In this document: one piece after another, positions 14,283-46,410 of the stretch
How the letters are laid out: every line of letters begins with the position of its first letter
Numbering within the stretch: the stretch's first letter is position 1
Assembly (NCBI GenBank): GCA_002269645.1
Contig: NIVC01000257.1
Location: 434,001 to 498,000 of the forward strand
DNA length: 64,000 nt
Reading direction: 5' to 3'
Source of the DNA: Macrostomum lignano
Lineage: Eukaryota
Position numbers and translations under genes: made by a program
The notes under the pieces: model-generated
The model's database searches: none
What the model saw: only the letters and a program-made list of their open reading frames with translations
What the model was told of the DNA's origin: nothing

Positions 14283-16133
14283 GCCCCCATTTATTGATTG
14301 ACTACAACCCAGGTGATTGAGTAGCGCCCTTCTTACCTAGCCTTTACTACGTAACCTAATAATTTAGGCTATGTCAGATTCTATAAAATGCGGCCCCATA
14401 TCCCAACCCAGCGAGAAGTGCTAGCTTCTGACTTTGTGGGACAGCTGATGAATAAGCAGGGTATCTTATATATTATTCTAACTTCAAGCTGCATTATTCA
14501 GATGCCGACTCATGCTTCAAGACAGTGATTTTGCCATATTCGTGTATTTAAGATCGCGCGTGTCACTTGACTGCAGTCATAAAAGTTCATTAAAGTTTAT
14601 AAAATGAAGCGACATCCAACAAATGTGAAATGTATGGGGTTTTAGGCCTATCAACTTTTCGGTAGGTCCAAGCCTAATTCTTAGGTTCGGCTTTGTACAC
14701 TATTTTTATTGGTAATTCGATCTATTTTAAGTGGCCAGCGCGCTAGCAGTTAATAGGCAGACCAACTTAAATTTAAATTCGTCAGTTAAAAACAACAAAG
14801 TTGGTTTCGCTAACACCTCTTCTGAATAAAAGCAATGCTTGTAACAAAATAGAGTCAAAATTAATGACTACAAGTTTTTCTATCTTGAATAAAATGCTTA
14901 GAAACTTTACCTCATAAGATTTTCGTTTTCGTTTTCGTTTTCAGCTGGAAAGCATGCTCAAATCTCTTGAAACTTAACTAGGCACTCGCCCCCTGCATCA
15001 GGAATCCATCAAATTGGATAAAATCAACATGCTGAACACGTGAAACGTGGACGTCATAGGATACAGTATTATAGTACAGTCAATATCTGAATTAGACTAG
15101 GCCTCCTGAAAAGTTTTGCGGCTAGAACATTGTTAAAAAAATGCACAACATTAACTTTATAGGTTAATTAGCTAGCTTGTCTAGACATATAGTATTATTA
15201 AATTAGGAATTTAGAATATTTGGATTAGGCCTACAATACTTATTGTATTTTCAACTTAAAAACGCTTTCATACTGCATTGTGCCTATTAGACGCAGTGAT
15301 CATTTTTGCCTACTTACTATCAGAAAGTAAAGTAAGTTTTATATTAAATTAGATAGACCTACTAAAAAATGAAAACTTCTATATAACTAAACCTGAAAAT
15401 TTTCTATGTATGTATGTACATAATCGATTTTAAAAGAAATTTATCCACCCAATTTTTTTCAAACTTGTGTTTTACTATTCAATTATCTAAATCTAACTGT
15501 AAATTAGTACAGTTCTCTTGGCTAAGAGATTGCTCCATTATAAAAGGATAAAATATTAAAAAAACATGCTTTTTGCAAAGGTCAAGCAGATTTTTTTGAC
15601 TTGAAGTGTATTGTAAAATGCTAAAGAAAAAACTGACTGGCAAATTCCAATTCTAAAATAGATTTAGCTACACTAGGCTTTTTGGCATAACTATGGTTTC
15701 GTTTGTTATATTATTTTATTTAAAAAAGTGACAAGTTATTAGAGATTACAACAAACCGTATTTGGAGAAGTTCAAATTAGAGTTCGAAGTCACGAGAAAG
15801 ATAATTAGAGGGGATAATAATGTGACACCCAGTAGAGAAAGTTGCCAAACTCATTCCATGGATATAGACGGCATCACAGAAATTCCTACAGATGAGTTTC
15901 AAATAGACCATCACTTGTCCCATACATGTTGCAAAACTTCGCCTTGCAATGTGCCCATGTTCCCTTGATACCAGTGTGTGGATCATGTATCCCTATATGC
16001 CGGAACAAATTCAGGTGTCAAGGACTTTGTACGCCAGTGTACGCCAGCCAGGTTCCAGTTTTACGCCAGTAGAGCGACCGGGGGGGGGTGGGGGTGTACC
16101 ACTGCGGATCCGACAACAAAGGATTATTTTAGG

Positions 16134-16159
16134 ATCCTAACCCTAACCCCCTAACCCTA
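16134..16159. repeat. Short interstitial telomere-like (CCCTAA)n tract
   Basis: CCTAACCCTAACCCCTAACCCTAA. Confidence 0.7.
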
Positions 16160-16384
16160 AAGATGTTTCTTTCACTTTTCACAGTATTTGCCATAACTTA
16201 GATTCATATGGCATTTTTATTATACTTAAAAATCTTTTTTTTAAATTGGCAACTGGCATGGGGAAATGAAGTTGCCAGATTGGCTTCTGATGCCAAAAAT
16301 CCAATTGCCAATGACATTTTCAAGGGACCAAGAAACCCCATATGGCCCAAAAAATAAATCCAGGTGACAAAACTGTTAAAAGTG

Positions 16385-17250
16385 TTAAGTAGCCTCGTGT
16401 GCCGCGCCGACGAAGTCGCACTTCGAGGTCTCCTTCTTGCGCCTGTCAAGTACCTTGCTGACCGTGTAGGTCGTAGCACGCCCGCTCGTAAAAAAAGGTA
16501 ACCGGTGCCTCTGGCTGGGGGTGTCGCCGTAGCCTTTTAGATATAGCGGAACAGCATCGTCTAGCAGGCGCTCGCACGCGTCACTGCCTAGCGGCGGCAG
16601 CATCCAGCGGAGCCTGGTCTGCAGCTGTAGGGTGTCGTTAGACTTACGACCATGCTGCTGCTGGGACCACATCGTTGCATAGAAGGACTCCGCGATGGCC
16701 TCTGAAAAAGCATATGGTTTTTAGGGTGCTGCCTTTACAAAAGGGTACCAAAACAATAAGCTAATAAGGGACTTAGTCATTGATCATAGATCATTTTTCT
16801 TATTTCTTTAAGTCGCAGTGCCGCATATTGTTACACTGAATTCCACGTTAGCCAACTGTTACGGATCTGTACTAAAACGAAATACTTCTGACCATGGGAA
16901 CTTAGTGCAGTGCAATGCGCGCATGTATTGGTTAGCTACTGTAAGCCAAAATAATGAAAACTGCAAAGTCTCACTCACCAGTGCCGCCCCGATTGAGCGC
17001 AAAGTCTAGCAGCATACACGACTGCTAGCAGCGCGGCGGAACACGCGGGGATCGACATAAAATGACTTTATAACTTTCTCCTCGTTGAGGGTAGTGTTGA
17101 AGTCCACCCCGGCATCCGTCTTGCCTGCCAGCCGCAGCTTCATATCCGCTAGGCTGCGCGCCAGGGCCAGGCGCAGCTGCGAAATAGGGCCCTCGACATC
17201 GGGCTCTAGCCAGCCCTCCCGGCCCTCTCCAGAGCAAATGACCTGATGGT
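16385..17250 (-). pseudogene. Remnant of a spliced transposase-like gene, possibly the C-terminal dimerization region of a hAT transposase
   Basis: Two GC-rich minus-strand coding-like blocks (about 17250-17006 and 16704-16385) separated by an AT-rich gap ending in TTTTTCAG. EAIAESFYATMWSQQQHGRKSNDTLQLQTRLRWMLPP loosely resembles the hAT S-x-x-E-R-x-F-S ... L-x-x-L ... GP dimerization motif. No catalytic core is visible. Confidence 0.4.
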
Positions 17251-17454
17251 GTGGTACAGGTTTTGTGGGTTGATCAAGGCTTGATAGTGTTTGTATAAAC
17301 TGTTGGGTCCTGGGGGTCCACAAAATAGAGCCAGTGGTTTATAGATGCGTGATTTGGCAGTGCATTGTATGCAGCCCAACCATCCATTTTGAAACATCCG
17401 TTTTGAAATTTAAAATGAAAAATAATATAATGAATGAAACCATAGTTATGCCGG

Positions 17455-20400
17455 CTTTTTATTTATTCTGTTTATTGGCTAAATTAGACACTAAATTGAA
17501 TTGCATCACAGTGTTAAAAACACAATGTGAAAGCATAGCACTGGCACCAGACTTGATTTAGATTGTGTAACTATATTATTGTCAACTTAATAGAGACAAG
17601 TACCAAATTGCCTAAGCAATTGATTATATTATAACTGACTTAGTGTGAGTATTGAATTATAAGTGTTTAATAGTGCTACAAATTCATTGTATCTATCTAT
17701 TTGTCTGTCTATCTGTCTGTTTGTTCAGTTTGCTTATCCCATTATTCTTAGCATTTCTGCCCAGTTACTATCTGGTAATTTTCTAAAAGCAGGATTTTGG
17801 CTAAGTTGGAAAAGGTAGGACTCAGTCTGTAGGGCCACCCAGCCTAGTCTCAGCCTCATCTTAAGTGGGTGCATAGTCTTCCTATGGCTGACAAAAAACT
17901 GGCAAAAAAAGTTTGAGCAGTGGATAGCAGTAAGGCAAAGATAGCCAAGTAGTGAGAGCTCAGTTTGTTTAAGACAAAAGGTGTGATAGGCTAGGCTTCT
18001 CAACAGAGTTTGGGTTAGCTGTTGCCAAGGGATGCTGGCCCTTGAAAGAGCTAGAGGTGAGAGCTAGAGATGAGATTAGCCTAGAGGTGATTAGGCTGAA
18101 CTGATAATGCAGCAATATGGGTTCAAATTTTTAGAGCATCAAGTTTTATGTAATACAAAAATTAAAAAGAACATTATGTAATACACAAAAGAAGCGTCAT
18201 GTCAAGCATTAAATAAGTGTCATATTAGGCATTAAATAAGTGTCATGTCAGGCATAAAGTAAGCCTCATGTCAAGCACTAAATAAGTGTCATGTTAGGCA
18301 TTAAATAAGCATAATGTCAGGCATAGGATAGACAATGTTAACATAAAAGGAGCATCATGTAAAAAATAAAAGAAGTCCTATATAAAAAAGAAGTGTAATG
18401 TAAAACATAAAGCATCACTTGAAATAGTGCTACAACTCTTGGGGGACATCATAGGGAGACAATAGCTGTCTAAGGTTGCTTATTATATATGGTAGCTGCT
18501 TGCTCTTGGGAGATGCTTGCTTAGGGGAATTGTTAAGATATCAAGACTTACTGCAAGGGAGTTCCTGAGATGGCTAGGCTCATTGGGGGAATTGCTAAGT
18601 TGTTTCAATCAAATAGTTTATTCACTCAAATCAACTATTTGAGTGATTTCTGGACTTTTACATGAGTATTTTGGGGATTCCTTGACATTGTAAGGGGCAT
18701 TTCTGATTTATAAAAAATATACTAAGGCAGGAGACTTTAGATAAAATAAAATAAATATTGACTAAATAAGAGAATCCTTAAGTCAATGGGAATCTAATTG
18801 ACCAAGCAGAATATTAAATGATCAAAAGGACAATTGTGACTATATTTAGGAATTATATTCATTTGTAAAGAATTTATATAGGAGGTAAAACTGTTAAATA
18901 GAATTCGGATTGGGCCCCCCAATGGGAAGGGCAGTTATGCTAGTGTAATACTAATAATAAAAATTGCTATTTAACTTTTTTACTTAATTAATTTACTATA
19001 TAAGTATTTGATTAATTATTTTTACTATATATATTCAATGCTCAATATTTAGGAATCTTAAAGATTAGCAAAATGGGTAGCTGCAGCTTTTTTGTAGCAC
19101 TCATTTGCCAGGTCTGCCTAGCGCAAAGCAAATATTTTTTAGAATGCTATATGAAAAAAGTTGTTACAATGCTATAATAAGTCTTATGAAAGTGCAAGAT
19201 TTTCTGTATTATTCTTTAAATTCTTTTCATCAGCATAAATTATAGAACCAATAATATGTAAAACTTGGCTATTAAACCTACAAGATGATAAAATAATCAG
19301 ATTTACAACCAAAGTAGTCATAAATATTAATAGATTTTTCAAAACTTGCCAATGTATAGTTTGACAGGATTTTATTATAAACATGCTAAGTTTGTTTGTT
19401 GCCTTAGGGCTTAAATAACTTCTCCCTAGAATATATATGAGGAATCAGGCTATGGACAAATGTCCCAAAGGAAAAAATTCTTACAAAGAAAGTTCTTATA
19501 TTCCATCAGGCAAATGCATGAATGAGGAAATTTCCATGCATGATTTTGATGCATTGCTTGCAAAAAGGTTGAGCGCAGGTGATACACAGCATGATACTAT
19601 CATTTTGAAGATAGCCACAGTATGATTGAAGTTCAAAGTACTTTAAAAATGAGGTCATGTCATAATTGTTGAATATCTTCTTAGATTGCCAGTCTATCAA
19701 GTTGCTAAAAGGTCTTCTATGTCTATTATCAATCTCTTACTCACCTTTCTTGTTTTCTAGATCTGCTTGCTATTCTTGCTGCTTAGAAAGAACACTTGAT
19801 ATATCTTTTTGGCACTAGTTCTACTGTGCTATACTATATGGTATAATGAAAAAACCTAGTCTATACCTTCTTTAAAGACATAGCTAAATTGAGCTTGGGG
19901 GACTGGAAATGTATAATAGCCAAATACTAGGTTGCAAAAAGTATGCTTTATAAAAAAATCAGTCAACCTCCTAAAGTAAAACTGTAAAAAGCAAAGTAGC
20001 CTGTCATATGGTCTGAAGGGATATTATTTGATTCTATGCAGCAATATTAAAGCAGTTTTATTACTAGCAAAAGACATGGATGACACTTATACTAAGAAGG
20101 ATAAGACCAGAACAATAATTTTGCAGGCATAAAAGTGAGTAGATGATCAGGATAGAATAATAGCACTGTAGGTAGATGATCAATGATAATATAGTAGTAT
20201 GAGGGCACAGATAGAATATTGGCAAATACTTAAAAACTAAAAGTATGCCACAATAAAAATACTTAAGAGCTTTTTATTATGAAGCTATTATATACTTCCA
20301 ATCTTATGATTTTGTAAGCTTTTGGCCTGGCTAGTTGGTTATTTTTGGGTGCATTGGCAATAGGCCTATGTCATATTTTATATTTGGTTTATATTTTAAC

Positions 20401-22140
20401 CTTGTCTATTAATAAAATTAATTGTAATTATAATACTACTATTAGTAGGATAGCCAAAACCTTTGTAATCAGCCTACTTTGGGTATGTTATACATAGCTT
20501 ACATAGCTTACCATAGTAATATCATTGATTTAAAAACTAACAAACTTGCAATTGCAAATAAGCTTTAAAAACAAAACTGTATCAATCAATAATATAATGT
20601 CTCCTAATATCAGTCATCTTCTCACAGTGCTTATACAGCTTTTTTCCTCAGCTTGCTTTTTCCTTTAGCTGCTAGAATCAATATAATAGCCTATTTGACC
20701 TCTTAATGGTTTGCAAAATTCTTCTTTAAAAAGTTAGCCTTTAGACATTTGAATAGAAATCTACTATACAAGTTGAAGTCTAGGCTATGGGGACTTTGCC
20801 TAGTCCCTAGATTTACTTGCAGTCTAAGTAGAAAATCTAAAATAGCCTTCCTATAGGTGAGCAACTAGGCCTACACATTGTTTATCTATCATAAAACCTC
20901 ATTCAATTAAATTAGATTTTATTAAAGAGTACATTAAAAGTATGCTAGCTAGTATGCCTAGTATGCTACCTAGTATGTATCAAATAAATTGATACTAAAG
21001 TACAAACTATTGACCTTAGTGTTTAATAAAGTTATAGAGATAGACTTAGGTATTCTTCAAGAATTGTTCACTAAACTCTGGCCATTCACTAAGCTCTTGG
21101 CCAATAGTGATGGTCTCCTTTGTCATCTAGGACTAGGTGACACCAGGTTTATAATTAACAACCAGGCAATTTAGGATATTAACCAAGCTCTTGCTATTGA
21201 ACATTTTCTAGATCTATTTGATGCAAGTGTCTTGTTGAAATTCTTAGTGATTTTTGTTCGTTACCATATTGGAATAACTGCTTGTATGATGTACAACCAT
21301 CTGTTCTACAAAGTTGTTAAATTTTGGTTCCATGCTGCAATACTGCAAAATTAATTATATTTATATACAACATTTACTGTCTAAGCAATAAGCATAATGT
21401 TTATAAACCTGTGCCACATATCTGTAGGATCTGAAATTGTATTTCAATAGATATTAATTACATTTTACTAGTTATTAGTTACATTGTGCAGCAAGGCAAA
21501 ATCAAGTCCTTAAAAAGGCTTGAAAGCACAAAGTGTTCTTCCTATTTCTTTATGGTGTCATTGGCTTTGTCATAGTGTAGTTTGTACAGGCATCTGGAGC
21601 ACTTGAGCCATAAACTGCAATATTATTTAGAAATTTATAGAATTAACACTGCAATGCATGCTACTACAGCAGCCATCCCTTTACCAAAAAAAAGAATCCG
21701 AATAAGAGAAGAACTTTCAAACAATTCAAATGAGTGATTAATGAATGGTTTATTAATATTGGTACATATAGTCAGTCAGCCAGCCATACTCGGGTTCAAT
21801 GGCTTTCAACCCTTATACTTCATTGAGCAGCACCTTGCCTTTGCCACTGTCTTGCTCTCTATCTAAGAAATAAATTAGGCTGTTTCTCTTTGCTTTCTCA
21901 ACTTAGCCTTGCCCAGTATATGTGAGCTGCCAAACTGGTAAATCCAACATGATCCAAACTTACAACCTTCTGACATGCAGTCACCAAAAGATTCAATTTT
22001 AGTTTTGTCAGCAATTTTTGCATTTTACCAATGTTTTTCCTTTCATCTAATGTCTGAAATTGACATTAAATAAAATTGCTTAGATTCACAAATGTATAAA
22101 GTTCAATTTTTCACCTTGCAGATTGCTAAAAATGGCAAAT
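17455..22140. other. CpG-depleted, C-to-T hypermutated AT-rich island, probably a decayed coding or mobile sequence
   Basis: About 7 CG dinucleotides found by eye in ~4.7 kb, whereas AT-rich flanks (13.4-15 kb, 23.9-27 kb) contain many; TAG/CTA are abundant. Confidence 0.75.
18192..18330. repeat. Degenerate 23-bp tandem repeat (about 6 units)
   Basis: Units such as AAGCGTCATGTCAAGCATTAAAT, AAGTGTCATATTAGGCATTAAAT and AAGTGTCATGTTAGGCATTAAAT. Confidence 0.8.
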
Positions 22141-23924
22141 GCAGACGCAGATGAGGATTCATTATCTGTAATCGAGCTGCTTACTTGCTCCATATGCAAC
22201 TGCATTGTATCCGATCCTAGGTTTCTTCCTTGCACTCACTCTGTGTGTCTCACCTGTGTGGATTCTATCAGAGATACCATAGACTGGTGCACTGGCAGCT
22301 GTGCTGTCTGCCAGCACAAACTTCAACTGCCTTTTAGTTCGTCTCAGCTAGGTCGCGATCTCGCCAAATCTCAGCTGGCCAAAATAGTTAAGATCAATAA
22401 AAAGAACAGACAGCCCCTCTGCTCAGCTCCTGACTGCCAGAATGCGTGGAAGGCCGTGTCAGGCTTGTCGAGCCGAGCCATGTGCGAGCAGCATCTGCAG
22501 GCGGAGCTGGACCGGCTGGCTGCAGAGGTGGCCTCACTGAGAGAGCCGGTCGCGGCTGCACTGGCGCCAGCAAGCCGTCTCTCAGGAATTTGTGGTCGAG
22601 CGGCAGAGAAGAAGCAGAGTCTGGAGGCCACGCAGCGAGAGGTGGAGTCGAAGTTCGAGAGACTTCGAGAGCAGCTCGAGGACGCAGAGACGCTGGCGTT
22701 AAAGGCAGTTCGGATCGACATTGAGAGGAGCTCGAGCTGCAGCGAGAGTGCAGAGTCGATTCGAGCTCAGCTGGAGCAGTTTCAGAGTATGGGTGAGAGC
22801 TGGTCGGACTTGCAGACTGCAGGAAGTCAAGGTGCAGTGCAGCTGGTCGATGAGACGAAGAGAGCACTGCGTCAGCTTGAGCACCTTGACGACTCGTTTG
22901 CGACAGTCTCTGATGTAGTGAACTCTGCGTCTGAGAGTTTAGTTAGCAGCTTAAAGCCTGAATTAGAAAAATTGTCCGCTAAACTCGAGAATCTTGTTGA
23001 TCGAACGGTTTCGTGCCGGCGTGTCTTGTCGCTTGAAGAATCAAAGTCCGTTAAACTGCAGAGCACACCTGACTTTGTGACTCTGTTATCGGACTGCAAG
23101 TTGATTTTGGACAAAAATTCGTGTTTCCGTGCTATCCCCGAGAAGGGTAAAATTCCTGCTGGAGCTGTGGAAATTCGTGGCTCAGTTTTGTGTTTTCTAT
23201 ATCGAACAATAAAGCTGAGCCAATGGTGCAGTTGTTTTCATTTCCGAGTTGTGACATTATTTTAGGAGGATGTTTCAAGATTCCGTGTTACGATCAGAGG
23301 GGCTATCCGATTTTTCAAAATTTTGAAGTGGAAGCGTTTTTTGGTGTTTCTTCAAAGAGCGTTTTTATTTTAGCTATCGTGGATGCGATTGTTAGTTTTT
23401 CTATCGGAGGCGAGTTCTTAAAACGCATCCTAACTAAGAATTCGTCAGTGTGGTCATTTTGTTCCAAGTCGGAGCAGCTGATAATTTTTTCACCAAATCA
23501 TGGCATCAGCCTGTATGATTCGGAGCTGCAGCTTATGAAATTAATTTCCGTTTCGGATTTGTCATGTCCTTCCGTATTGTCAATGTGCCCGCAGTTTATC
23601 CTGGCAGACTTGGGTGATAGGCAGGTGTCAAGAATCGACGTTAGCAACCGCAGCGTGACCACACTGGCACAGTGCAAGCACCTGAGAGCTCAACTTCAAC
23701 GCGCCAGTGTTATTTGTGAGGCTGAAAGCAAAATGTGCTTTGTACGCGGTGCAAAGTCAATCTTTGTGATGAACGAACAATTTGGTTTAGTTGAAAAACT
23801 GGAAATAAAAACTGCGCTACCAGGCGGCTTCTTCAAGGTCCGCATCTCAAACATGGATTATCTTGTCGTGTGCAGCGCTGCCGGAAAGTCCGTTGACTTT
23901 ATCTCAATTAATAACTATGAGTAG
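22132..23924 (+). pseudogene. TRIM-like copy A (RING-degenerate B-box-coiled coil-NHL-like) with a 1-nt frameshift near 23209-23213
   Basis: C3HC4 RING CSICNCIVSDPRFLPCTHSVCLTCVDSIRDTIDWCTGSCAVC. Two overlapping ORFs (22123-23265, 23190-23924) join into a paralog of copies B and D if one base is restored (ACA ATAAA GCT GAG versus ACA CAGTAT TCT GAG in B). Could be an assembly error. Confidence 0.8.
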
Positions 23925-25658: not shown

Positions 25659-27550
25659 TTAACCAAGATTGTTCTGTATATCAGCCACAAATTTTTAATT
25701 TGGTATTATCTAACATTTAATGAATACACAGGATTATTAATACATTTGCGCCTGTAAATTTTTAGCGATTTTAGCGTAATTTATTATTAATTTTGTTGTT
25801 GAACCGCGCCGTATTTGTGTGATTTCCTATGCTTTTACAGACAGGTTTACAAGTTATATTTTAGTTTTGTTATCCAGCAAATATTCGTTAAAGGTCTTTG
25901 TCTTTGCTATTCCAGAAAACTTGGCACCATAGATCTTATCTACACTAGATAGGCCACTCAGTAGCACCCAGCCAAACCATTGAATCTATAGGAAGCTTTC
26001 CAAGAAGCGGTATTTTCATCTAATTCTCAGTAGTTAGTGCGCATATTTGTCAGTAGCTGAAACGAGAATTAAATGCTTTGTTTATTCAGCTGTGTCAGCG
26101 AAGACTTGAAATGCCATTGCATGAATACTGTGAGATTATAATCAGCAGAGTGCGTTTTCAGAGAAAGAAATCGTCTATGCATTTCTTCTGGGTCAGAAGG
26201 CTGTTGGAAAGCAGTGTAGATTTTAAAGAAAACTGAAAGAAGTTGGCGTAAAAAATTACTTTGCGTCATTTTATTGCGATTAAATATATTTTTTCGGCCA
26301 TGTCCATAGGCTACTGACAATTTGTTTTCAGCAGTGCAAGTGAACATGTTATCGTCCACGAGTCATTGTTGGGTGTCATTTTCTACACATTGACTGGATG
26401 GGGAGTGGCCTATCTAGTGTATATGAAATCTATTCTTAGCACTAAAAACCCTAGAAGTGACCAATAGATAAATATAATTGGACGATGTGTTGTTAAGTCT
26501 GAAACCATTTCGCTGTGAATTCTTTCTATGTTGACTTTTGCATTAAGGATGCCGCCTTAAAACATATTTATTCGATAGTTACATACGAGCGTATGTGTTA
26601 GAACACTATAAAGCCAGTTACCCCAGTATAATTTGCACTTTTCAATGATAAAATTGGCTGCCCTAGACAAGTAAAGTCCCAACTATGTTTTCCCGCAACT
26701 TTTCTTTTGACAATTTTTACTTCATATTTATAAATTTTATAACTCGAAAAAAAAATTTATAAAATGTTTGAAAAATTCCATTTTTGATATTAGTTTCACT
26801 GTTAATTTTTATTTTAAGACCCGTCAATATTTTGTTTAGCCTCATTGTTGCACAACACAACAACAACAACAGAATACGCTGTCATGATGGTAAAAGTCAG
26901 CGTCACACAGCACACAGCAAGTTCATTTTTAGTTATAAGTTAGTTTCAAACGGGAGTACCAAGTTTGCTTGTTGAATGGGTTCAGCTTCCGCTACACTCA
27001 ACAAGCAGCTTGTCGAAGTTTCTTGCTGACTACAAAGGGGGTATCTTGTGGCCACAGATTCGTAGTTTATGAGGCTCGCAGGAGCAAGCTATTGGGTGAA
27101 GTGCTTTGCGGTAAAATAAGATGGCATCAGTAAATAAAATTGATGCTCTCTGTCGCCTATCGGTATCAGCGTTGCCATTCTCAACGACTCAATATGAATT
27201 CTAATTTAGCGTCAACGGCAAAGCAACGTTAAAAGTGCGTGGGAAACATTAAAAATAAGCAGGCACCCTATATGTATAGAAATATCCGTAGTGTTGTGGA
27301 ATCTGTGTAACATACACTAGCAAACTTTAACAGCCAAGCTTCATACACCTTTTTTTGAAAATGTCTACTTAAGATTTTTTCAAAACACAGCTGCGGTTTT
27401 GAGACAAGTTTTGCGGCTCTCAATTTAATAAATAATTTGCCAGAAGCTTATCTATTAAAGACGATAGGTTAATAACTAGTCAGTGTCATTCTGTCAATCT
27501 TATATCCAAAGAGTTCAATCTTATCATATATTAATTACTTCATGCCAGCC

Positions 27551-29356
27551 ATGGCCACCGCCTCAGCAGACGCTTCAGGCGACAGTGCTCAGTCTGTGGA
27601 GCAGCTACTCACCTGCTCTGCGTGCTGCCGCATGGTCTCCGATCCCAGACTGTTGCCATGCTCACACTCTGTGTGCCTCAGCTGTGTGGACTCGCTCAGA
27701 GAAGCCACAGACCGGTGCACAGGCAGCTGCCCTGTCTGCCAGCAGAAAATTCAGCTGCCGAATAATTCTTCTGAGCTGAAGCGCGACATCACGAAGTGTC
27801 AGTTTGCCAAAGCGTTGAATATCACAGAGAAGAGCAGAGAGCTCTGCTCAGCTCCTGACTGCCAGAATGCGTGGAAGGCCGTGTCAGCCTTGTCGAGCCT
27901 AGCCATGTGCGAGCAGCATCTGCAGGCGGAGCTGGACCGGCTGGCTGCAGAGGCGGCCTCACTGAGAGAGCCGGTCGCGGCTGCACTGGCGCCAGCAAGC
28001 CGTCTCTCAGGAATTTGTAGTCGAGCGGCAGAGAAGAAGCAGAGTCTGGAGGCCACGCAGCGAGAGGTGGAGTCGAAGTTCGAGAGACTTCGAGAGCAGC
28101 TCGAGGACGCAGAGACGCTGGCGTTGAAGGCAGTTCGGATCGACATTGAGAGAAGCTCGAGCTGCAGCGAGAGTGCAGAGTCGATTCGAGCTCAGCTGGA
28201 GCAGTTTCAGAGTATGGGTGAGAGCTGGTCGGACTTGCAGACTGCAGGAAGTCAAGGTGCAGTGCAGCTGGTCGATGAGACGAAGAGAGCACTGCGTCAG
28301 CTTGAGCACCTTGACGACTCGTTTGCGACAGTCTCTGATCGGATCGAATCAACGGCTAAAAAGTTTGTTGCAAATCTAACTTTGGAAGTTGAGAAGTTAT
28401 CCATTGAGCTGGAAAAACTGGTTGATCAAACGGTTTCGTGCCGACGTGTGTTGTCGTTGAAAAAATCAAAGTCCGTTAAACTGCAGAGCGCACCTCAGTT
28501 TGTGACTCTGTTATCGGACTGCAAGCTGATGTTGGACAAGAACTCGTGTTTCACTTTCATCCCCTTTAACGATAAAATTCCTGCTGGAGCTGTAGCAATT
28601 CGTGGTTCGGTTTTGTGTTATCTATTTCAAACACAGTATTCTGAGCCAACTATGCACTTGTTTTCATTTCCTGGTTGTGACCTTATTTTAGGAGGATTTT
28701 TCAAAATTCCTTATTGGCATCAGGACAGCGCGCTATGGTCAGAAGATCCTGATTACATAGTTAAAGCATGTTTCGGTGTTTCTTCAAGAAGCGTTTTTAT
28801 TTTGGCTTTCTCAGAAGCGATCGCTAGTTATTATGTCGGAGGCAAGCTTTTAAAACGCATCCAAACTAACCATTCGTCAATGTGGTCATTTTGTTCGAAG
28901 TCAGAGCAGCTACTCGTTTTTTCACGAAATCATGGCATGAGCTTGTATGATTCGGAGCTGCAGATTATGAAATTAATTCCGGTTTCGAATTTGTCGTGTC
29001 CTTCCGTATTGTCAATGTGCCCGCAGTTCATCCTGGCAGACTTGGGTGATGGGCAGGTGTCAAGAATTGAGGTTAGCACCCGCAGCGTGACCACACTGGC
29101 ACAGTGGAAACACCTGAGAGCTCAACTTCAAGGCGCCAGTGTTATTTGTGAAGCTAAAAGCGAATTGTGCTTTGTACGCGTTGAAAAGTCAATCTTTGTA
29201 ATGAACGAACAATTTGATTTAGTTGAAACGCTGGAAATAAGAAATGTACGATCAGGCGGCTTCTTCAAGGTCCGCATCTCAAACGTGGATTATCTTGTCC
29301 TGTGCAGTGCTGCCGAAAAGTCCGTTGACTTTATCTCAATTAATAACTATGAGTAG
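27551..29356 (+). CDS. TRIM-like copy B, intronless RING-degenerate B-box-coiled coil-NHL-like protein (601 aa; in-frame upstream ATG at 27542)
   Basis: RING CSACCRMVSDPRLLPCSHSVCLSCVDSLREATDRCTGSCPVC; heptad-rich coiled coil; ~40-aa beta-blade periodicity with NHL-like FILADLGDGQVSRIEV and MSLYDSELQIMKLI; uninterrupted ORF. Confidence 0.85.
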   Translation: MATASADASGDSAQSVEQLLTCSACCRMVSDPRLLPCSHSVCLSCVDSLREATDRCTGSCPVCQQKIQLPNNSSELKRDITKCQFAKALNITEKSRELCSAPDCQNAWKAVSALSSLAMCEQHLQAELDRLAAEAASLREPVAAALAPASRLSGICSRAAEKKQSLEATQREVESKFERLREQLEDAETLALKAVRIDIERSSSCSESAESIRAQLEQFQSMGESWSDLQTAGSQGAVQLVDETKRALRQLEHLDDSFATVSDRIESTAKKFVANLTLEVEKLSIELEKLVDQTVSCRRVLSLKKSKSVKLQSAPQFVTLLSDCKLMLDKNSCFTFIPFNDKIPAGAVAIRGSVLCYLFQTQYSEPTMHLFSFPGCDLILGGFFKIPYWHQDSALWSEDPDYIVKACFGVSSRSVFILAFSEAIASYYVGGKLLKRIQTNHSSMWSFCSKSEQLLVFSRNHGMSLYDSELQIMKLIPVSNLSCPSVLSMCPQFILADLGDGQVSRIEVSTRSVTTLAQWKHLRAQLQGASVICEAKSELCFVRVEKSIFVMNEQFDLVETLEIRNVRSGGFFKVRISNVDYLVLCSAAEKSVDFISINNYE

Positions 29357-33079: not shown

Positions 33080-34876
33080 ATGGCAACCAAAGATGACTTA
33101 CCGTCATCTGAGCAGCTGCTGAACTGCTCCGTGTGCCACCGCATGGTCTCCGATCCCAGGCTGCTGCCATGCTCACACTCTGTGTGTCTCCGCTGTGTGG
33201 ACTCAGTCAGAGATGCCACGGACAGGCGCACTGGCAGCTGCCCTGTCTGTCAGGCAAAACTTGAGCTGCCGCAGAATTCAAATCAGCTCCAGCGAGATGT
33301 CATGAAGTTTCGATTTGCGGAAAGTGTCAAGGCCTCCGTAGTCAGTACGAAGCCATGCACTCATTCTGACTGCAAGAAAATGTCAGAAAGCGTGTCAGCC
33401 TTGTCGAGCCGAGCCATGTGCGAGCAGCATCTGCAGGCGGAGCTGGACCGGCTGGCTGCAGAGGCGGCCTCACTGAGAGAGCCGGTCGCGGCTGCACTGG
33501 CGCCAGCAAGCCGTCTCTCAGGAATTTGTGGTCGAGCGGCAGAGAAGAAGCAGAGTCTGGAGGCCACGCAGCGAGAGGTGGAGTCAAAGTTCGAGAGACT
33601 TCGAGAGCAGCTCGAAGACGCAGAGACGCTGGCGTTGAAGGCAGTTCGGATCGACATTGAGAGGAGCTCGAGCTGCAGTGAGAGGGCAGAGTCGATTCGA
33701 GCTCAGTTGGAGCAGTTTCAGAGTATGGGTGAGAGCTGGTCGGACTTGCAGACTGCAGGCCTCAGTGCAGTGCAGCTGGTCGATGAGACGAAGAGAGCAC
33801 TTCGTCAGCTTGAGCACCTTGACGACTCGTTTGCGACAGTCTCTGATGTAGTGAACTCTGCGTCTGAGAGTTTAGTTAGCAGTCTAAAGCCTGAATTAGA
33901 AAAATTGTCCGCTAAACTGGAGAATCTTGTCGATCAAACAGTTTCATGCCGGCGTGTCTTGTCGCTTGAAAAATCAAAGTTTGTTAAACTGCAGAGCGCA
34001 CCTCAGTTTGTGACTCTGTTATCGGACTGCAAGTTGATGTTGGACAAGAACTCGTGTTTCAGTTCCATCCCCGATGACGGTAAAATTCCCGCTGGAGCTG
34101 TGGAAATTCGTGGTTCGGTTTTATGTTTTCTATTTCAGAAACAGAATGCTGAGCCAGCGGTGCACTTGTTTTCATTTCCGGATTGTGAAATTATTTTAGG
34201 AGGATTTTTCAAAATTCCTCGCTACTCTGTCAAGTCGGAAAATAAATTGCCGTTGCTTTTTGGTCGAGATGATTACGAAGTGAAAGCGTTTTTCGGTGCT
34301 TCTTCAAAGAGCATTTTTATTTTAGCTTTCTCGAGAGCGATAGCTACTTATTCTGTCGGATCAAAGTTTTTAAATAGCATCCCAACTAAGAATTCGTCAA
34401 TGTGGTCATTTTGTTCCAAGTCAGAGCAGCTGATAATTTTTTCACCAGATCATGGCATCGGCTTGTATAAATCGGGGCTGCAGCTTATGAAATTCATTTC
34501 CGTTTCGGATTTGTCGTGTCCTTCGGTCTTGTCAATGTGTCCGCAGTTCATCCTGGCAGACTTTGGTGATGGGGAGGTGTCAAGAATTGACGTTAGCAAC
34601 CGCAGCGTGACCACACTGGCGCAGTGGAAACACCTGAGAGCTCAACTTCAAGGCGCCAGTGCTATTTGTGAAGCTGAAAGCAAATTGTGCTTTGTATGCG
34701 GTGCAAATTCCATATTTGTGATGAACGAACAATTTGAATTGGTTGAGACACTGGAAATGAAGAATGTGCTTCCAGGCGGCTTCTTCAAAGTCCGCAGCTT
34801 AAACATGGATTTTCTTGTCGTGTGCAGCGCTGTTGGAAACTCGGTTGACTTTATCTCGATTAGTAACTATGAGTAG
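33080..34876 (+). CDS. TRIM-like copy D, intronless (598 aa from MATKDDL)
   Basis: RING CSVCHRMVSDPRLLPCSHSVCLRCVDSVRDATDRRTGSCPVC; same coiled-coil core and C-terminal propeller-like region as A and B; uninterrupted ORF. Confidence 0.85.
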   Translation: MATKDDLPSSEQLLNCSVCHRMVSDPRLLPCSHSVCLRCVDSVRDATDRRTGSCPVCQAKLELPQNSNQLQRDVMKFRFAESVKASVVSTKPCTHSDCKKMSESVSALSSRAMCEQHLQAELDRLAAEAASLREPVAAALAPASRLSGICGRAAEKKQSLEATQREVESKFERLREQLEDAETLALKAVRIDIERSSSCSERAESIRAQLEQFQSMGESWSDLQTAGLSAVQLVDETKRALRQLEHLDDSFATVSDVVNSASESLVSSLKPELEKLSAKLENLVDQTVSCRRVLSLEKSKFVKLQSAPQFVTLLSDCKLMLDKNSCFSSIPDDGKIPAGAVEIRGSVLCFLFQKQNAEPAVHLFSFPDCEIILGGFFKIPRYSVKSENKLPLLFGRDDYEVKAFFGASSKSIFILAFSRAIATYSVGSKFLNSIPTKNSSMWSFCSKSEQLIIFSPDHGIGLYKSGLQLMKFISVSDLSCPSVLSMCPQFILADFGDGEVSRIDVSNRSVTTLAQWKHLRAQLQGASAICEAESKLCFVCGANSIFVMNEQFELVETLEMKNVLPGGFFKVRSLNMDFLVVCSAVGNSVDFISISNYE

Positions 34877-35629
34877 TTTAAGGAGGATAGGATCAGCTTG
34901 CTCTGGCTGCTAGTAAAATTTTTTGTGCTTTTTTATATGGTGTTTCACTGTACTGTCTGCTATTCCCAACGACCATGAAAAGAGAAAAACTCGATCGATA
35001 AATGTTAAGGTGGGGCTTCTTCCTATTTGACGCATTGATTTCTAAACACAGCAGTTGCGAGTGCTGTCTACGAGTACAATTTGTTTGCTTTTGTTTTCAA
35101 GGCTTTTATCTGATTATAAAACTAATTCTAATTTAACTGGACCTGTAAAAATATAAAGCATGAAGCTGAGACTTATGCCACATATCGATCGAACTGGGGT
35201 GGGGTGAAGGAGGGGCGATGTTTACATTGCTTTTTGTCACTTCGTCTCGCTCTCTTTTGGGGTAGAACATGTAACAAAATGCGGCTCACAGATGCTGCAA
35301 ATTGCCAAGGTTCTTTTTATTACACTGTTGTACTCAAGTTTTTTTACCTTCTTCCGAATCTCTGTTATAAAAACGATTTTTATTTATCCACAAGCTGTTG
35401 AAACCCGCGGATTTTGAACCCGGGGAATTCCAATCCCCAGAACTACTTTTGCATGTATTCTGAAATCTAAGACCATACACAAACAAATTAATGTTAGTAG
35501 GATAGAGGTAGACATAAAATGGAGCACATTCGTGTAAAATTAGAGTTTGAGGCAAACGTTGATATTGTTTGCTGGGGTACTCCACAGAATGCCAGGCAAT
35601 GTCTGTCTGACTCTAAAACATGTATTGGC

Positions 35630-36725
35630 AAACTCTGGCCTCTCCCTGACTCTCCTATGTCCCTTGGATCCTTTAAAATTTCTATCGTCTCTCTGTTTCC
35701 TTTCTTCGCTCTCATCCCTCGTCTCTCGTCTCTCCTCTCTCCTCTCCTCTCTTCTCTCGTATCTTCCCTCATCACTCTTCTCTTTCATCTCTCTTATCTC
35801 ATCTCTTCCCTATTCTTTTCTCTCTCCTTTCCTCTCTCCTTTCTACTTTTCGTTTTCTCTCTGCTCTCCTCTCTCCTCTCTACTCTTTCGTTTTCTCTCT
35901 CCTCTCTCCCATCTTCTTTCGTATATTACCTAATCTTTCTTCTCTTTCATATCTCTTATTTCATCTCTTCCCTCTTCTTTTCTCTCTCCTCTCCTCTCTC
36001 CTCTCTCCCCCTCTTCTCTCGTCTCTTCCTTGTCCTCTCTACTCTTTCCTCTCTCTCTCCTCTCTCCTCTAGTCTCTGTAATCTCTTCTCTCTTATCTCT
36101 CCTCTGTTCTCTCTACTCTCCCATCTCTCGTCTGTTCATCTGCTCTCTCATCTGTCATCTTTACTCTCTTATACGTTCTCTCACTTATCTCCTCTGTACT
36201 CTTCTCTTTCACCTCTTCTGACTCCTCTCTTTCCTTACTCCTTTCTTCTTTTCTCTTCCCTCTTCTCTATACTCTCTCTCCTCTATTATCTTCTCTCGTC
36301 TCTCTGCACTCTCCTCTCACCTTTTTCTCTCATCTCTTCTTTTATCTGTCTCATCTCTACAATCTCATCTCTTTCCTCTCTCCTCCTCTTCCCTTTACTC
36401 TCTCATCTCTCCTTTCTCCCCTCTTCTTTCACCACTCTCTTATCTCTATCTCTTCTCTTCTCACTCCTCTATCCCCCTCAGTCTTATCTCCTCTCTTCTC
36501 TATCCTTTCTACTCTCTCCTCTCCTCTTGACCCTCTGTCATCTTCTTTCTGCTCTCTCATCTCTACTCTCTTCTCAATCTTCTCTACTCTCCTCTCTCAT
36601 CGATCCTCTGTCTCATCTCTCCCCTCTTCTCACCTTTACTCTCTCCTCTCCTTCCTTTCTCCCCTCCTCTCGCTTCTTCCTCCCTTCTTCTCTGCTCTCT
36701 CCTCACCACTTTTCCTTTTCACTCT
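35630..36725. repeat. Homopyrimidine (TC-rich) low-complexity tract inside Helitron unit 1, with similar tracts at 38330-39520 and 40920-41350
   Basis: Almost purely C/T on the + strand; produces spurious Ser/Leu-rich ORFs. Confidence 0.9.
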
Positions 36726-36815
36726 CATCTGGCCCGCAGCCATGAGCTGGATTCTTTATCTGGCCTTTGAGATAAAAATCTGCCAATCCCTGCTTCGAAA
36801 GTACTATCATGGGGA

Positions 36816-36912
36816 CCTTTGAAACTTCGCAATAGCAATCCGGCCCTCGGGTCCTTTGAAACTTCGCAATAGCAATCCGGCCCTCGGGTCCTTTGAAACT
36901 TCGCAATAGCAA
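36816..36912. repeat. 37-bp tandem repeat, about 2.6 units (CTTTGAAACTTCGCAATAGCAATCCGGCCCTCGGGTC)
   Basis: Present in unit 1 and absent from the homologous position of unit 2. Confidence 0.8.
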
Positions 36913-38920
36913 TCCGGCCCCCGTGGGACGTAGTACTATCATGGTTGTTATCATTTCTCATGCTTTAATCACGTCATCTTTCTGGCCAATTAGCAGCCCT
37001 GAGAGGAATTTGTGTATCTCCATTCTCCAGCTCCACCACCAGTCTGCAGCAGTCTAACAACCAAGGAAATACGCATTTCTTAGGAGGCCATTTAAATTTT
37101 AAAGTTACCTTATGCGAATCTTAATGTTAAAATTTTCATGGTGTAACTAATTTAGTAGGATTGCATTGTAATCAGTTATTCTTATTCATTAATTTTTCGC
37201 TATTTTTTTAAACCATCCCATATCGCCTTGATTTGCCATCCTTGTTTAACTGCTGCAGACTTGTCTATACAGAGGACAGTAGTTTGAATCTCTCGCTAAA
37301 CTCTCTCCTCTCCACGCCTCTCCACTCGCGGGGGTACAGAGAAGGCTATTAAAAAGTTATTCCAAAACACTGTACATTCGCTATGTACATTGAGCCCTAT
37401 CGCCTGATCCTTCGTCTGGGGGAATGAGTTGGATGAGCGGCAAACAACAGAAAAAGCAGACAAACTTCACATGCTTACAGTTTCTTTTTCGGTTGAGTTA
37501 CAGAGTTGAAACTTTACATTTAGACAGAGAATGGGTCAATGAAGAATTGTGTCAAGTTTGAAGTCAATCGCTTTACGTGGAGCAAACTTATGGCAGCTGA
37601 AAGTTAGTCAATTTTGAAACCCTTTTACACATCTGGGCCCAGATCGGTATCGGGAAAGAGAGGCAGGCGGGCGGAGGTTGGGGTGGCTGCCTCGCTGAAA
37701 AAAACAGCCTAACTTTAAAAGTGCACAGCGGCTTTCAGGATTAACTTTGAGATTTTAAATTTTACACGATTGTGTCAAAATAGTTTAAAATTGCCTGTGT
37801 CAAATTTGAAGAGAATCGGTAGAAGTGGAGCGGCGCTATGGAGGATTTAGTGAAAAAATCGCGCATTTTGAGCAGTTTTTTGTACTTTTAGGCAGGAAGA
37901 CTTGAGTCTAGGAAATTTAAAGGTAGCCTAAGACATTCTCCGTAGTAAGTTTAGGGTGGGTGTAAGGTTTGGTGTCATTTGGTTGAGCGGTTTGGGAGTC
38001 CATAGCGATCAAAATTGTCCACAGACACACAGACAGACAGACAGACAGACACACAGACAGAGTTTTGATTTTTATATGTAGAGACAAGCTGTTGAAACCC
38101 GCGGATTTTGAACCCGGGGAATTCCAATACCCGGAACTACTTTTGAATGTATTCTGAAATCTAAGGCCATACACAAATAAAAACTTGTTAATAGTTAGTA
38201 GGATAGAGGTAGACATAAAATGAAGCACATTTGTGTAAAATTAGGGTTTGAGACATTGTTGGCTAGGGTACTGCACAGAATGTCAGGCAATGTCTGTCTG
38301 ACTCTAAAACATATATTGCTAAACTCTGGTCTCTCCCTGACTCTCCCTATGTCCCTTGGATCCTTTAAAATTTCTATCGTCTCTTTGTTTCCTTTCTTCT
38401 CTCTCATCCCTCGTCTCTTGTCTCTCCTCTCTCTTTTCTCGTCTCTTCTTTCATATCTTCCCTCATCTCTCTTCTCTTTCATCTCTCTTATCTCATCTCT
38501 TCCCTATTCTTTTCTCTCTCCTCTCCTCTCTCCTTTCTACTTTTCGTTTTCTATCTGCTCTCCTCTCTCCTCTCTACTCTTTCATTTTCTCTCTCCTCTC
38601 CTCTCTCTTCTCTCCTCCTCTTCTCTCGTCTCTTCCTTCTCCTCTCTATTATTTTCTCTCTTCTCTTGACTCTCTCCTATACTCTCTCATCTCTCCTCTC
38701 TACTCTTTCCTCTCTCTCTCCTCTCTCCACTCTTCTCTCGTCTCTTCCCTCACCTCTTTCCTCTCTCTCTTTCCTCTCATCTCTTTTCTTGTTTTATCTC
38801 TTCTCTCTCCCTTCGTTGCTCGTCTCTTCCCTCACCTCTCTTCTCTCTCGTCCACTCTTTCATCTCTCCTTTCTCTTCTTTTATATTTTCTCTCTTATCT
38901 CTTCTCGTTTCTCTCTGCTC

Positions 38921-38967
<47 letters not shown>

Positions 38968-41397
38968 CTACTCTCTCCCCTCTTCATTCTCCTGTTTCCT
39001 CTTCTCTCTCCCTGTCTCTCCTCTCTTCTCTAGTCTCTGTAATCTCTTCTCTCTTATCTCTCCTCTGTTCTCTCCACTCTCCCATCTCTCGTCTGTTCAT
39101 CTGCTCTCTCATCTATCATCTTTACTCTCTTATACGTTCTCTCACTTATCTCCTCTGTACTCTTCTCTTCACCTCTTCTCACTCCTCTCTTTCCTTACTC
39201 CTCTCTTCTTTTCTTTTCCCTTTCTATACTCTCTCTCTCTTCTATTATCTTCTCTCGTCTCTCTGCACTCTCCTCTCACCTTTTTCATCTCTCATCTCTT
39301 CTTTGATCTGTCTCATCTCTACAATCTCATCTCTTTCCTCTCTCCTCCTCTTCCCTTTACTCTCTCATCTCTCCTTTCTCCCCTCCTCTCACTTCTTCTT
39401 CCCTTCTTCTCTGCTCTCTCCTCACCACTTGTCTCTCCTCTTATATTCCATGTTTTCTCATATCCCCCTCTTGCCTCTCCTCTCTTCTAATAGTCTATTC
39501 CTTCTCCTTTCCACTCTCATCTGGCCCGCACATAAGCTAGATTCTTTATCTGGCTTTTGAAGTAAAAGTCTGCCAATCCCTGCTTCGAAAGCCAGTTTGT
39601 GGGACGTACTACTCTCATCGTTATTCTCATGCTTTGATCACGTCATTTTTCTTGCCAATTTGCAGTCCTGAAAGGAATTTGTGTATTTTCAGCTCCACTG
39701 CAGTCTGCATCAGTCTAACAACCAAGGAAATACGCATTTCTTAGGAGGACATTTAAAATTTAAAGTACTTTTAAGAGAAACCTAAAATTTTCATGGTGTG
39801 CCTAATTTAGTAGGGTTGTATTGCATTGCATCGCATCGCCTTTTCATAAATCTTTCGCTTTTACAAACCATGCTGGATTTCCTCGATTTGCCAATTGCCA
39901 TCCACTGTTAAACTGCTGCAGAGTTTGCCAATACAGAGGGGAGGGCAATAGTTAGAATTTCTCACTAAACTGTTATGGCTAAACGTAGCCTCTCCACTCT
40001 CGGGGTGCAGAGAAGGTTATAAATAAAGTTATTCCAAAACACTGTACATTCGCTATGTACATTGAGCCCTATTGCCTGACCCTTCGTCTGGCTCTGGGGG
40101 AATGAGTGAGTGAGTGGCACAAACAACAGAAAAAGCAGACAAACTTCACATGCTTACAGTTTCTTTTTCGGTTGAGTTACAGAGTTGAAACTTTACATTT
40201 AGACAGAGAATGAGTCAATGAAGAATTGTGTCAAGTTTGAAGTCAATCGCTTTATGTGGAGCAAACTTATGGCAGCTGAAAGTTAGTCAATTTTGAAACC
40301 CTTTTACACCCTTTACCCAGATCAGGAAAGAGAGGCAGGCGGGCGGAGGTTGGGGTGGCTGTCTCGCTGAAAAAACAGCCAAACTTTAAAAGTGCACAGC
40401 GCCATTCAGGATTAACTTTGAGACTCAAAATTTTACACAATTGTGTCAAAATAGTTGAAAATTGATTGTGTCAAATTTGAAGAGGATCGGTAGAAGTGGA
40501 GCAGCGCTAAGGAGGCTTTAGTAAAAAAATCGCGCATTTTGAGCAGTTTTTTGCACTTTTAGGTAGGAAGACTCAAATTTAGGAAATTTAAAGGTAGCCT
40601 AAGACATTCTCCATAGTGAGTTTAGGGTGGGTGTAAAATTTGGTGTCATTTGGTTGAGTGGTTTGGGAGTCCATAGCGATCAAAAATGTCCACACACACA
40701 CAGACAGAGTTTTGATTTTTATAGGTATACGAGGCCAACTCCTCCTCTGGAGGAGAAAGGGGAAGAACTCCCATCACCGGAATTCCATTCCCTGAAATCC
40801 ATCAGCTGAAATTCCATGACTTGAATCCCATCTTCCAAATCATCTCCAAATCCTCTGTAAAGCCTTTCAAATACCATATCTTGTTTTCCCTGTTCGCAAA
40901 AACTGACTGCCATTGTCCAGACTCAGATTCTTCTGTCTCCTCTCTTCTCTTTTCTCTCCTCTCACGTCTCTCATCTCTACCACCTTATTTATCTCTTCTC
41001 CCTCGTCTTTCGTCTTTCTCTTCTGTCTCCTTTATCCCCTGTTTTCTCCTCTCTCCTCTCTCCTCTCTTCTCTCCTCTCTCATCTCTCATCCCTCATGCC
41101 TCATCTCACTATTTCTTTCTCCTCTACTCTCAGCTCCTCTCTTCTCTCTCCTCTCATCTCTCCTGTCTCCCTCTGCTATCTCATATATTCCCTCTCATCT
41201 CCTCTCTCCTCTTTTCTTCTCTCTCCCTCTTCGTTCCCGCCTTACTCCCCTCTTCTCTCCCATCTGTCATGTCTAATCTGTCCTCTCTCATCTCTACTCT
41301 CTTTTCTATAATCTCTTCTCTCTTCTCTTTTCACTCTTCTCTTTACTCTCTTTACTGACTGACTGAAGATACCAAATCCATCAAAATCCCTCCGTGA

Positions 41398-45215: not shown

Positions 45216-46410
45216 ATGGCCACCGCCTCAGCAGACGACTCAGGCGACAGTGCTCAGTCTGTGGAGCAGCTACTCACCTGCTCTGCGTGCTGCCGCATGG
45301 TCTCCGATCCCAGACTGTTGCCATGCTCACACTGTGTGTCTCAACTGTGTGGACTCGCTCAGAGAAGCCACAGACCGGTGCACAGGCAGCTGCCCTGTCT
45401 GCCAGCAGAAACTTCAGCTGCCGAATAATTCTTCTGAGCTAAAGCGCGACATCACCAAGTGTCAGCTCGCCAAAGCGTTGAATATCACAGAGAAGAGCAG
45501 GGAGCTCTGCTCAGCTCCCGACTGCCAGAATGCGTGGAAGGCCGTGTCAGCCTTGTCGAGCCGAGCCATGTGCGAGCAGCATCTGCAGGCGGAGCTGGAC
45601 CGGCTGGCTGCAGAGGCGGCCTCACTGAGAGAGCCGGTCGCGGCTGCACTGGCGCCAGCAAGCCGTCTCTCAGGAATTTATAGTCGAGCGGCAGAGAAGA
45701 AGCAGAGTCTGGAGGCCACGCAGCGAGAGGTGGAGTCAAAGTTCAAGAGACTTCGAGAGCAGCTCGAGGACGCAGAGACGCTGGCGTTGAAGGCAGTTCG
45801 GATCGACATTGAGAGGAGCTCGAGCTGCAGTGAGAGTGCAGAGTCGATTCGAGCTCAGCTGGAGCAGTTTCAGAGTATGGGTGAGAGCTGGTCGGACTTG
45901 CAGACTGCAGGCCTCAGTGCAGTGCAGCTGGTCGATGAGACGAAGAGAGCACTGCATCAGCTTGAGCACCTTGACGACTCGTTCTCTATGGTTTCTGACA
46001 GAGTGAAATCAGCTGCCGAGCTGAGTTTCGATTTTTTGTCTTCGGAGTTGAAGAATTTCGCGAGCGAACTGGATGCTCTTGTGGACATCACCTTGCGCGA
46101 TACTGAGGTTCTGCGGTTTAAAGAGACAAAACCTGTACTGTTTAATGGAAATCCGAAGTTTGTGGCCTGCCTCCTACACACCAATCTGTTGCTGAATCTG
46201 TTGGCAAAAATTTTGTTCGCAAGCTGCCAGCTTCTCTCTTACGAGTATTTGTTGTTTGCCAAACAGTTGAGGCCCATATTATGCAGCTGTTTACCTTTCC
46301 AGGCTGTGAGCCAGTCCTTGGTGCCCAGTGGGAGTGTGAGGCCCTTGGCTGGAAGGGAAAAAATAACAGGCTAAACAATTTTTTTTGGAGATTCTGCTCA
46401 CAGCCGCCTG
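45216..46410 (+). pseudogene. TRIM-like copy E, frameshifted and truncated
   Basis: 2-nt (CT) deletion inside the RING at about 45332 (CACTGTGTGTCTC versus CACTCTGTGTGTCTC in F); a further frameshift near 46200 (MQLFTFPGCEPVLG lies in another frame); no recognisable NNYE C-terminus. Confidence 0.8.

Follow-up and report, generated by a model that had tools for sequence, protein, structure and literature searches.

Why does a genome otherwise rich in CpG hold a stretch of nearly 4.7 kb with almost none? The stretch, at 17455-22140, lies in a window of 64,000 nucleotides from Macrostomum lignano (GCA_002269645.1, contig NIVC01000257.1, positions 434,001 to 498,000; G000:C257:434001-498000 in the assembly compared here, which has 764 Mb in 5,269 contigs), and window positions are used throughout. 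From sequence comparisons, and with a probability of about 0.8, we conclude that this island is the remains of transposons stripped of CpG, and of many CAG, by gradual C-to-T change, likely through germ-line methylation followed by deamination.

We found seven CpG in 17455-22140 (at 18195, 18906, 19122, 19574, 21259, 21699, and 21791), where 124 are expected from composition (GC 32.6%). The observed/expected ratio (o/e) is 0.056, and with the expectation lowered to 80% the deficit still has a Poisson p of ~1e-33. The first-pass annotation, which had flagged the island, was exact in the count and in every position and had guessed an expectation of ~100. The window's AT-rich control DNA (12.8 kb, GC 36%) has a CpG o/e of 0.83, and the TAG and CTA described at first pass as conspicuous occur at 24.2 per kb versus 15.3 in the control.

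The island had also been called sharp. The void is real, but its left edge is where a younger insertion stops and its right edge tapers. CpG-poor DNA extends left past a 1,769-bp element with terminal inverted repeats (TIRs), with 1 CpG in 15357-15683 where 5.6 are expected, and the border at 17455 is abrupt because this younger element ends there. On the right, decay tapers over ~200 bp into a RING gene, where 3 of 11 paralog CpGs remain; deeper in the gene, 33 of 34 remain. The features of the region are as follows.

15357..15683, plus strand: left part of a Helitron-like repeat, CpG-poor, 5′ end approximate
15684..17452, no strand given: younger non-autonomous TIR element of 1,769 bp, absent in C3594
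15980..17270, plus strand: 1.3-kb insert within the TIR element, mid-decay, with a sister copy at C2712
17453..22131, no strand given: CpG-void patch of nested decayed repeats, 7 CpG, void also at G000:C390 and C3594
17692..18041, plus strand: copied low-copy piece with 0 CpG here; its counterpart at C1525/C27/C28 has ~20
18188..18325, plus strand: 23-bp tandem array, common to the Helitron-like family
18910..18943, plus strand: Helitron-like 3′ end, a GC-rich hairpin-like stretch (read from sequence), then CTAG at 18940-18943
18944..20476, no strand given: CpG-void DNA without family match, with matches at two homologous loci only
20477..21260, minus strand: Tc1/mariner remnant that retains one TIR and the transposase's 3′ part
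21267..21450, no strand given: short repeat piece whose other copies (L036, L037) are CpG-void too
22132..23922, plus strand: first in a tandem array of RING-finger/coiled-coil genes, with CpG decay in its first ~200 bp

Substitutions in the patch and the role of position

The mariner remnant was compared with a near-intact copy, L039:1485-2848 (G000:C1290, C1135), which has TIRs, a TA target site, 57 CpG, and a 338-aa transposase frame (DDE_3, E 4.9e-10). Relative to this copy, 99 of 244 C had changed to T, together with 8 T-to-C changes at 224 sites and 25 transversions at 468. The C-to-T changes were most frequent at CG (21/30), followed by CA (40/94), CC (21/60), and CT (17/60), and fell on both the plus (52/125) and the minus strand (47/119). 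For the copied piece at 17692-18041, we observed 44 C>T/G>A and 4 reverse changes relative to its donor, with 0 CpG versus 20. A diverged, AT-rich mariner subfamily is an unlikely source of the island copy since T-to-C changes are so few and the same spectrum recurs in the host piece and in the 1.3-kb insert. The C>T/G>A changes follow the order CG > CAG > other CA > CC/CT, and they are gradual and affect both strands.

A deaminase-driven process, raised at first pass, would mean here that a single-strand deaminase of the AID/APOBEC type mutated the element. The oldest pieces do show C-to-T change raised in every context, as in the CC and CT counts above, which fits such an enzyme. However, the preference is for the 3′ neighbor (CG, CAG), with no 5′ TC or WRC preference, and the strands are not coordinated: over 13 copies, 97 changes lie on the plus and 108 on the minus strand, neighboring changes share a strand in 99 of 192 cases (p = 0.72), and no one-strand C-to-T bursts were found. 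A search of the genome with PF08210 (APOBEC_N) gave 0 candidates, other deaminase families not being searched. We consider this explanation very improbable.

The decay is set by position and by neither family nor homology, because whatever lies within the patch is eroded and its sister or donor copies elsewhere are spared; the counterparts of patch elements elsewhere in the genome have retained their CpGs. For instance, the sister of the insert at 15980-17270, located at C2712 in CpG-normal DNA, is 97% identical. The window copy lost 15 CG and 7 CA cytosines, 6 of the latter in CAG, against 0 and 0 for the sister, and 5 transversions separate them. Per site, the window insert had changed at CG 15/164, CAG 6/56, other CA 1/109, CC 1/181, and CT 0/150, with T>C at 1/622. 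The insert copy at C390 lost 18/164 CG and 3/56 CAG, and the C257 and C390 copies carry 8 and 10 private CG losses, respectively, which implies that decay is gradual and was still running after the copies split.

The same dependence was seen in the mariner family, whose other copies are mostly a 974-bp internal deletion derivative. We used 53 copies of this derivative, the best-scored of ~270 candidates, representing 36 independent sites; they were partly picked by likeness to the decayed copy, with queries that excluded the flanks. Where both flanks are CpG-poor, CG loss was 127/463, versus 70/1985 at the remaining sites (29 of the 36, mean loss 3.5%). Upon removal of 2 and 3 more diverged sites, CG loss was 66/343 (5 sites) versus 62/1778 (26 sites; p = 0.0016), and sites of the same age had transversions at 0.5% with CpG-poor flanks versus 0.8% at the others.

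These numbers also bear on a methylation-independent regional bias, in which lack of GC-biased conversion or poor repair in heterochromatin would enrich the region in AT and CpG loss would be a by-product. Although patches do have slightly more CC/CT transitions and transversions, such a bias cannot yield CG changes 52-fold and CAG changes 18-fold over transversions with CC/CT at 5- to 6-fold, nor an insert that lost 15 CG and 6 CAG versus 1/331 CC/CT cytosines. We therefore give it next to no weight.

CAG changes, methyltransferases, and repair

Heritable change of CAG to TAG is a second, non-CG signature and the unexpected part of our results. We compared 25 pairs of homologous loci, some pairs having a locus in common. 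In CpG-void windows, changes were found at CG 24/81, CAG 51/489, CAT 46/816, CAC 13/327, CAA 28/1145, CC 35/1192, and CT 77/2418 (CTG 14/466), with transversions at 113/19,936; the corresponding counts in normal windows were CG 114/5215, CAG 26/2331, and transversions 200/54,201. When nine trios of homologous loci were used to polarize the changes, CAG>TAG was found at 14/167 sites in patches versus 5/895 outside (p = 2e-8), with CTG at 7/161 and CC+CT at 37/1261 in patches; TAG>CAG, at 9/258, is partly mis-polarized. The CAG>TAG rate is 8-10% in patches versus ~1% outside. Since the three homologous loci split, CA>TA has occurred at 67/426 sites in the island versus 11/235 in the left flank, with transversions equal. 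At 198 of 212 CA hits the A was retained, so the CA changes are not detours through CG. Within the patches, G at -1 is disfavored and T at -2 favored, and the oldest mariner piece shows CTG changes at 12/33.

A PF00145 profile search of the genome yielded at least 12 matches, of DNMT1, DNMT3, and a third type that, by a motif, is presumably DNMT2, at three loci each. All of them are DNMT1-, DNMT3-, or DNMT2-like, and none of these matches is a RID/Masc1-like enzyme or a chromomethylase. DNMT1 (E 2e-64) and DNMT3 (E 2e-20) each have three copies, with intact catalytic motifs as judged on exons. All three DNMT3 copies carry TTKRCS in the loop of the target recognition domain (TRD), where human DNMT3A has TTRSNS and DNMT3B has TTKSxS. 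This places a DNMT3B-type lysine at the K777 position and C in place of the CpG-reading N779; the DNMT3B chain compared has A at 779, the papers giving N779 as wild type. The catalytic loop reads PCSQLSAANP versus PCNDLSIVNP in human, with A for N656/I715 and A for V657/V716. The DNMT3 copies (L208:1658-2074, L204, L211, L080:1492-1758) carry several such substitutions at DNA-reading TRD and catalytic-loop positions relative to human DNMT3A/B. In human DNMT3B, K777 is described as bonding the +1 G and giving CAG preference at non-CpG sites (PMC7335073), N779 as reading the CpG guanine and tempering that preference (PMC7335073, PMC7672481), and DNMT3a as preferring CAC where DNMT3b prefers CAG (PMC5595995). 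The flanking preferences of DNMT3B reported in PMC7672481 resemble the trends within the patches. By analogy, this suggests that the DNMT3 residues match the observed CAG spectrum.

Two observations on these genes may be added. Within 5-20 kb of a DNMT3 gene copy there are CpG-void patches, as well as a mariner derivative in partial decay, L127 (L207-L209, L203; G000:C305:360-390 kb; C2545). The genome also holds TDG-like and UNG genes, presumably of these families by their motifs: two distinct TDG-like exon sets (L196, L198, L199-L202) and four UNG-like copies. We rejected missing T:G repair as the cause because these genes are present.

We propose that the germ line keeps the patch cytosine-methylated, whereupon 5-methylcytosine (5mC) would deaminate to T. 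De novo methylation of the patch would be the work of DNMT3, with repressive chromatin or small RNAs as its probable candidate guides, and DNMT1 would maintain the CG methylation. The CAG component may be a non-CG side activity of the genome's DNMT3, and de novo targeting, if it continued, would account for CA sites that still mutate once the CpGs are gone. Targeted methylation with deamination was among the mechanisms suggested at first pass, and it fits C-to-T change on both strands, the lead of CG, and the presence of DNMT1 and DNMT3. What does not stand is the accompanying claim of one inserted element, since the patch is built of several repeats, nested in one another, plus a piece copied from the host, and mutation tracks position, not element.

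The first-pass annotation had also named a process like repeat-induced point mutation (RIP). In such an enzyme-driven defense, a methyltransferase, perhaps DNMT3, or a partner deaminase would convert C to T and outpace spontaneous 5mC decay. Consistent with this, CG transitions run at ~40-50x the transversion rate in patches despite TDG and UNG, CA sites keep mutating after CpG exhaustion as counted above, and the recognition loops of DNMT3 are altered. However, the strand bursts are lacking, and donor copies, sister copies, and most copies of a high-copy family are untouched, with losses that are gradual and private to each homologue. The RIP indices proposed at first pass, once computed, were not shifted in the RIP direction: TpA/ApT is 1.02 in the island (controls 0.93-1.06) and (CpA+TpG)/(ApC+GpT) is 1.46 (controls 1.11-1.27). 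The PF00145 matches speak against it as well. We therefore regard an enzyme-driven defense as unlikely, and equally so a relaxed, CAG-accepting DNMT3 acting as a mutagenic defense, in which CG and then CAG/CA cytosines of a marked patch would turn to T more quickly than by spontaneous decay, even with the CpGs exhausted. Triggered by position, such a defense would be the animal equivalent of RIP. The outcome resembles slow RIP in that transposon copies are ruined, yet on our reading the process is ordinary methylation decay confined to patches.

Several points weigh against decay by methylation and deamination within the patch as we propose it. L133, one of seven mariner derivatives flanked by CpG-poor DNA on both sides, has lost just 3/67 CG, and the young Helitron-like insertion at C3594 still has a CpG o/e of 1.11, having lost 34 CG versus 5 in a relative; insertions are evidently hit unequally. 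CC/CT changes and transversions are raised ~1.5-3x in void windows, for which CG/CAG methylation gives no reason. CAG is also slightly favored in mariner copies outside patches (32/1423, from related and not independent copies), and pooled mariner counts use the same reference sites more than once. Lastly, the link from residue to specificity for DNMT3 is an extrapolation from the human enzymes.

Origin, anatomy, and frequency of the patches

The island is native to the genome and the assembly is right. Loci C390 and C3594 carry it between matching flanks and equally void of CpG. Contigs from three DNA-type runs of three studies, one of which is possibly the source of the assembly, covered 30 of 30 bins. 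Both borders are bridged by contigs of independent runs, the right one at 22098-22446 and the left one narrowly at 17423-17792 and 17425-17685; among the contig pieces listed, none covers the island end to end. A further run, presumably of RNA and given no weight here, left 4 of 30 bins uncovered. A segment from a globally CpG-methylated donor, or a contaminant or mis-join, would be in keeping with sharp borders and lower GC. However, the island is made of repeats native to this genome and of a host piece of low copy number, CpG-rich in other copies, and decay occurs in place, as the insert and its C2712 sister show. The foreign origin entertained at first pass and a chimeric join are refuted by the shared flanks, the bridged borders, and the decay in place, which leaves this explanation with a negligible probability. 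At C390 the island copy contains a 2.6-kb repeat whose core is a long CT-rich tract (G000:C390:545474-548121), and the same repeat stands twice head to tail in the window (35390-38037, 38084-40727).

The patch is a nest of decayed repeats and a copied host piece. The Helitron-like element spans from ~15357 to the CTAG ending at 18943. In C3594, and likewise in L023 and L025 of this family, its left part at 15357-15683 runs straight into 17453, and the same 3′ end is found in L023 and in the young C3594 insertion. The latter (G000:C3594:44143-48790, L017) is a non-autonomous Helitron-like element of 4.6 kb, TC...hairpin-CTAG, between A and T, and it sits in the island's mariner remnant. The 5′ TC end and the insertion between A and T are seen in this young relative; the 5′ end of the window element is decayed. 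The TIR element has 34-bp TIRs at 15684-15717 and 17419-17452 and an 8-bp target site duplication, GGCTTTTT, at 15676-15683 and 17453-17460, and may be called hAT-like by the length of that duplication.

For 17692-18041, one other triplicated locus matches and none else (8 matches from 6 candidates). Its counterpart lies ~4 kb upstream of an exon whose closest resemblance is to TRPV 'Inactive' (E 1.8e-36), and the piece was presumably copied from the TRPV-gene flank to the patch and captured by the Helitron-like element. Rfam gave 0 matches across 15000-22500. No frame within the island exceeds 109 aa, and a Pfam scan of one 68-aa island frame found no match, the stop-ridden frames of 18935-22140 not being scanned.

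To the right of the patch, the window holds at least five RING-finger/coiled-coil genes in tandem (22132-23922, 27548-29353, 33080-34873, 45227-46371, and 49072-50883). The first has a frameshift near 23210, which is likely an assembly error because C390 and C3594 have 597-aa frames and one run's contig is without the frameshift. Over 22417-22716 it shares 98% identity with the next copy, against 73% at the 5′ ends, a contrast suggestive of gene conversion.

Such patches are not confined to this locus. We sampled the genome without regard to sequence using 60 hand-picked 10-kb stretches, 38 of which existed (373 kb, ~0.05% of the genome). Among 411 usable non-tandem 500-bp windows in these 38 loci, 15 had a CpG o/e below 0.15, and most lay at 0.6-1.1. 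Eleven patches of at least 700 bp, in 7 loci, made up 14.8 of the 250 kb of non-tandem DNA sampled; others reach up to 4-6 kb, and ~4-6% of sampled non-tandem DNA lies in eroded patches. By extrapolation, the genome would contain thousands of them, and this island would be long and clean rather than unique. We could not show that a single repeat family seeds all patches: Helitron-like pieces occur in several, and many have no match among the loci compared. At L020:178-3576, a long open, retrotransposon-like pol frame of normal CpG content adjoins a CpG-void patch.

Comparison with known systems and biological meaning

Methylation-driven loss of CpG in repeats is textbook knowledge, and the 2015 Macrostomum genome paper reportedly found low methylation. 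Our patches share with 5mC decay in animal transposons (vertebrates, and the mosaic methylomes of cnidarians, sponges, and some arthropods) the CpG>TpG/CpA changes on both strands, the repeat targets, and DNMT1 with DNMT3. They differ in that the genome is otherwise CpG-rich while kilobase-sized patches approach zero CpG, most copies of young families are untouched, and heritable CAG>TAG is clear. Cnidarian transposon methylation is described as depending on age and local environment (PMC8857917). The dependence on local environment recurs here. As for age, methylation reportedly declines in older cnidarian transposons, but our old patches still mutate.

Mammalian DNMT3B methylation at CAG resembles our data in its order (CAG > other CA > CC/CT), the lysine at the K777 position, and the disfavored G at -1 (PMC7335073, PMC7672481, PMC5595995). 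It is known, however, as a methylation pattern of embryonic stem (ES) cells, oocytes, and neurons, and here it is read as a mutation signature of patches. Ascomycete RIP (RID/Masc1) likewise ruins repeats by C-to-T change with CpA among its targets. Unlike RIP, the decay here spares partners, favors CG over CA, is gradual and strand-balanced, and is accompanied by no RID-like PF00145 match. Decay through plant CHG methylation (CMT3) also leaves CAG>TAG in transposon patches, but at our homologous loci CTG equals the CC/CT background while CAG exceeds it, so the mark is not symmetric CWG, and chromomethylases are absent from the 12 or more matches. The window element is like non-autonomous Helitrons with captured host pieces in its 3′ hairpin-like stretch and CTAG, subterminal tandem repeats, and low-copy host piece, and unlike a typical one in its decayed, approximately placed 5′ end.

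A 2022 review describes RIP from fungi only, gives methylation patterns in free-living flatworms as unknown, and states that Macrostomum retains DNMT1 and DNMT3 (PMC9246332). Low 5mC is reported for Macrostomum (PMC11292947, PMC10658182), and descriptions of non-CG methylation in animals come mainly from neurons, oocytes, and stem cells of vertebrates (PMC10658182, PMC7335073). In the literature, mostly open-access, on Macrostomum methylation, RIP-like animal processes, and transposon CAG mutation, we found no such patches and no invertebrate CAG signature; the 2015 genome paper may cover repeat methylation. A term search of the accessible text of bioRxiv 10.64898/2026.02.02.703326 gave no match.

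Taken together, the sequence offers a fossil methylome: erosion is heavy within patches of sharp outline, and it has spared the genes and the majority of young transposon copies. For asking what marks a position, the insert at 15980-17270 and the C2712 sister, which is unmutated, form a ready pair. If our reading is true, CAG>TAG change tied to a DNMT3B-like DNMT3 would represent strong germ-line non-CG methylation in an invertebrate.

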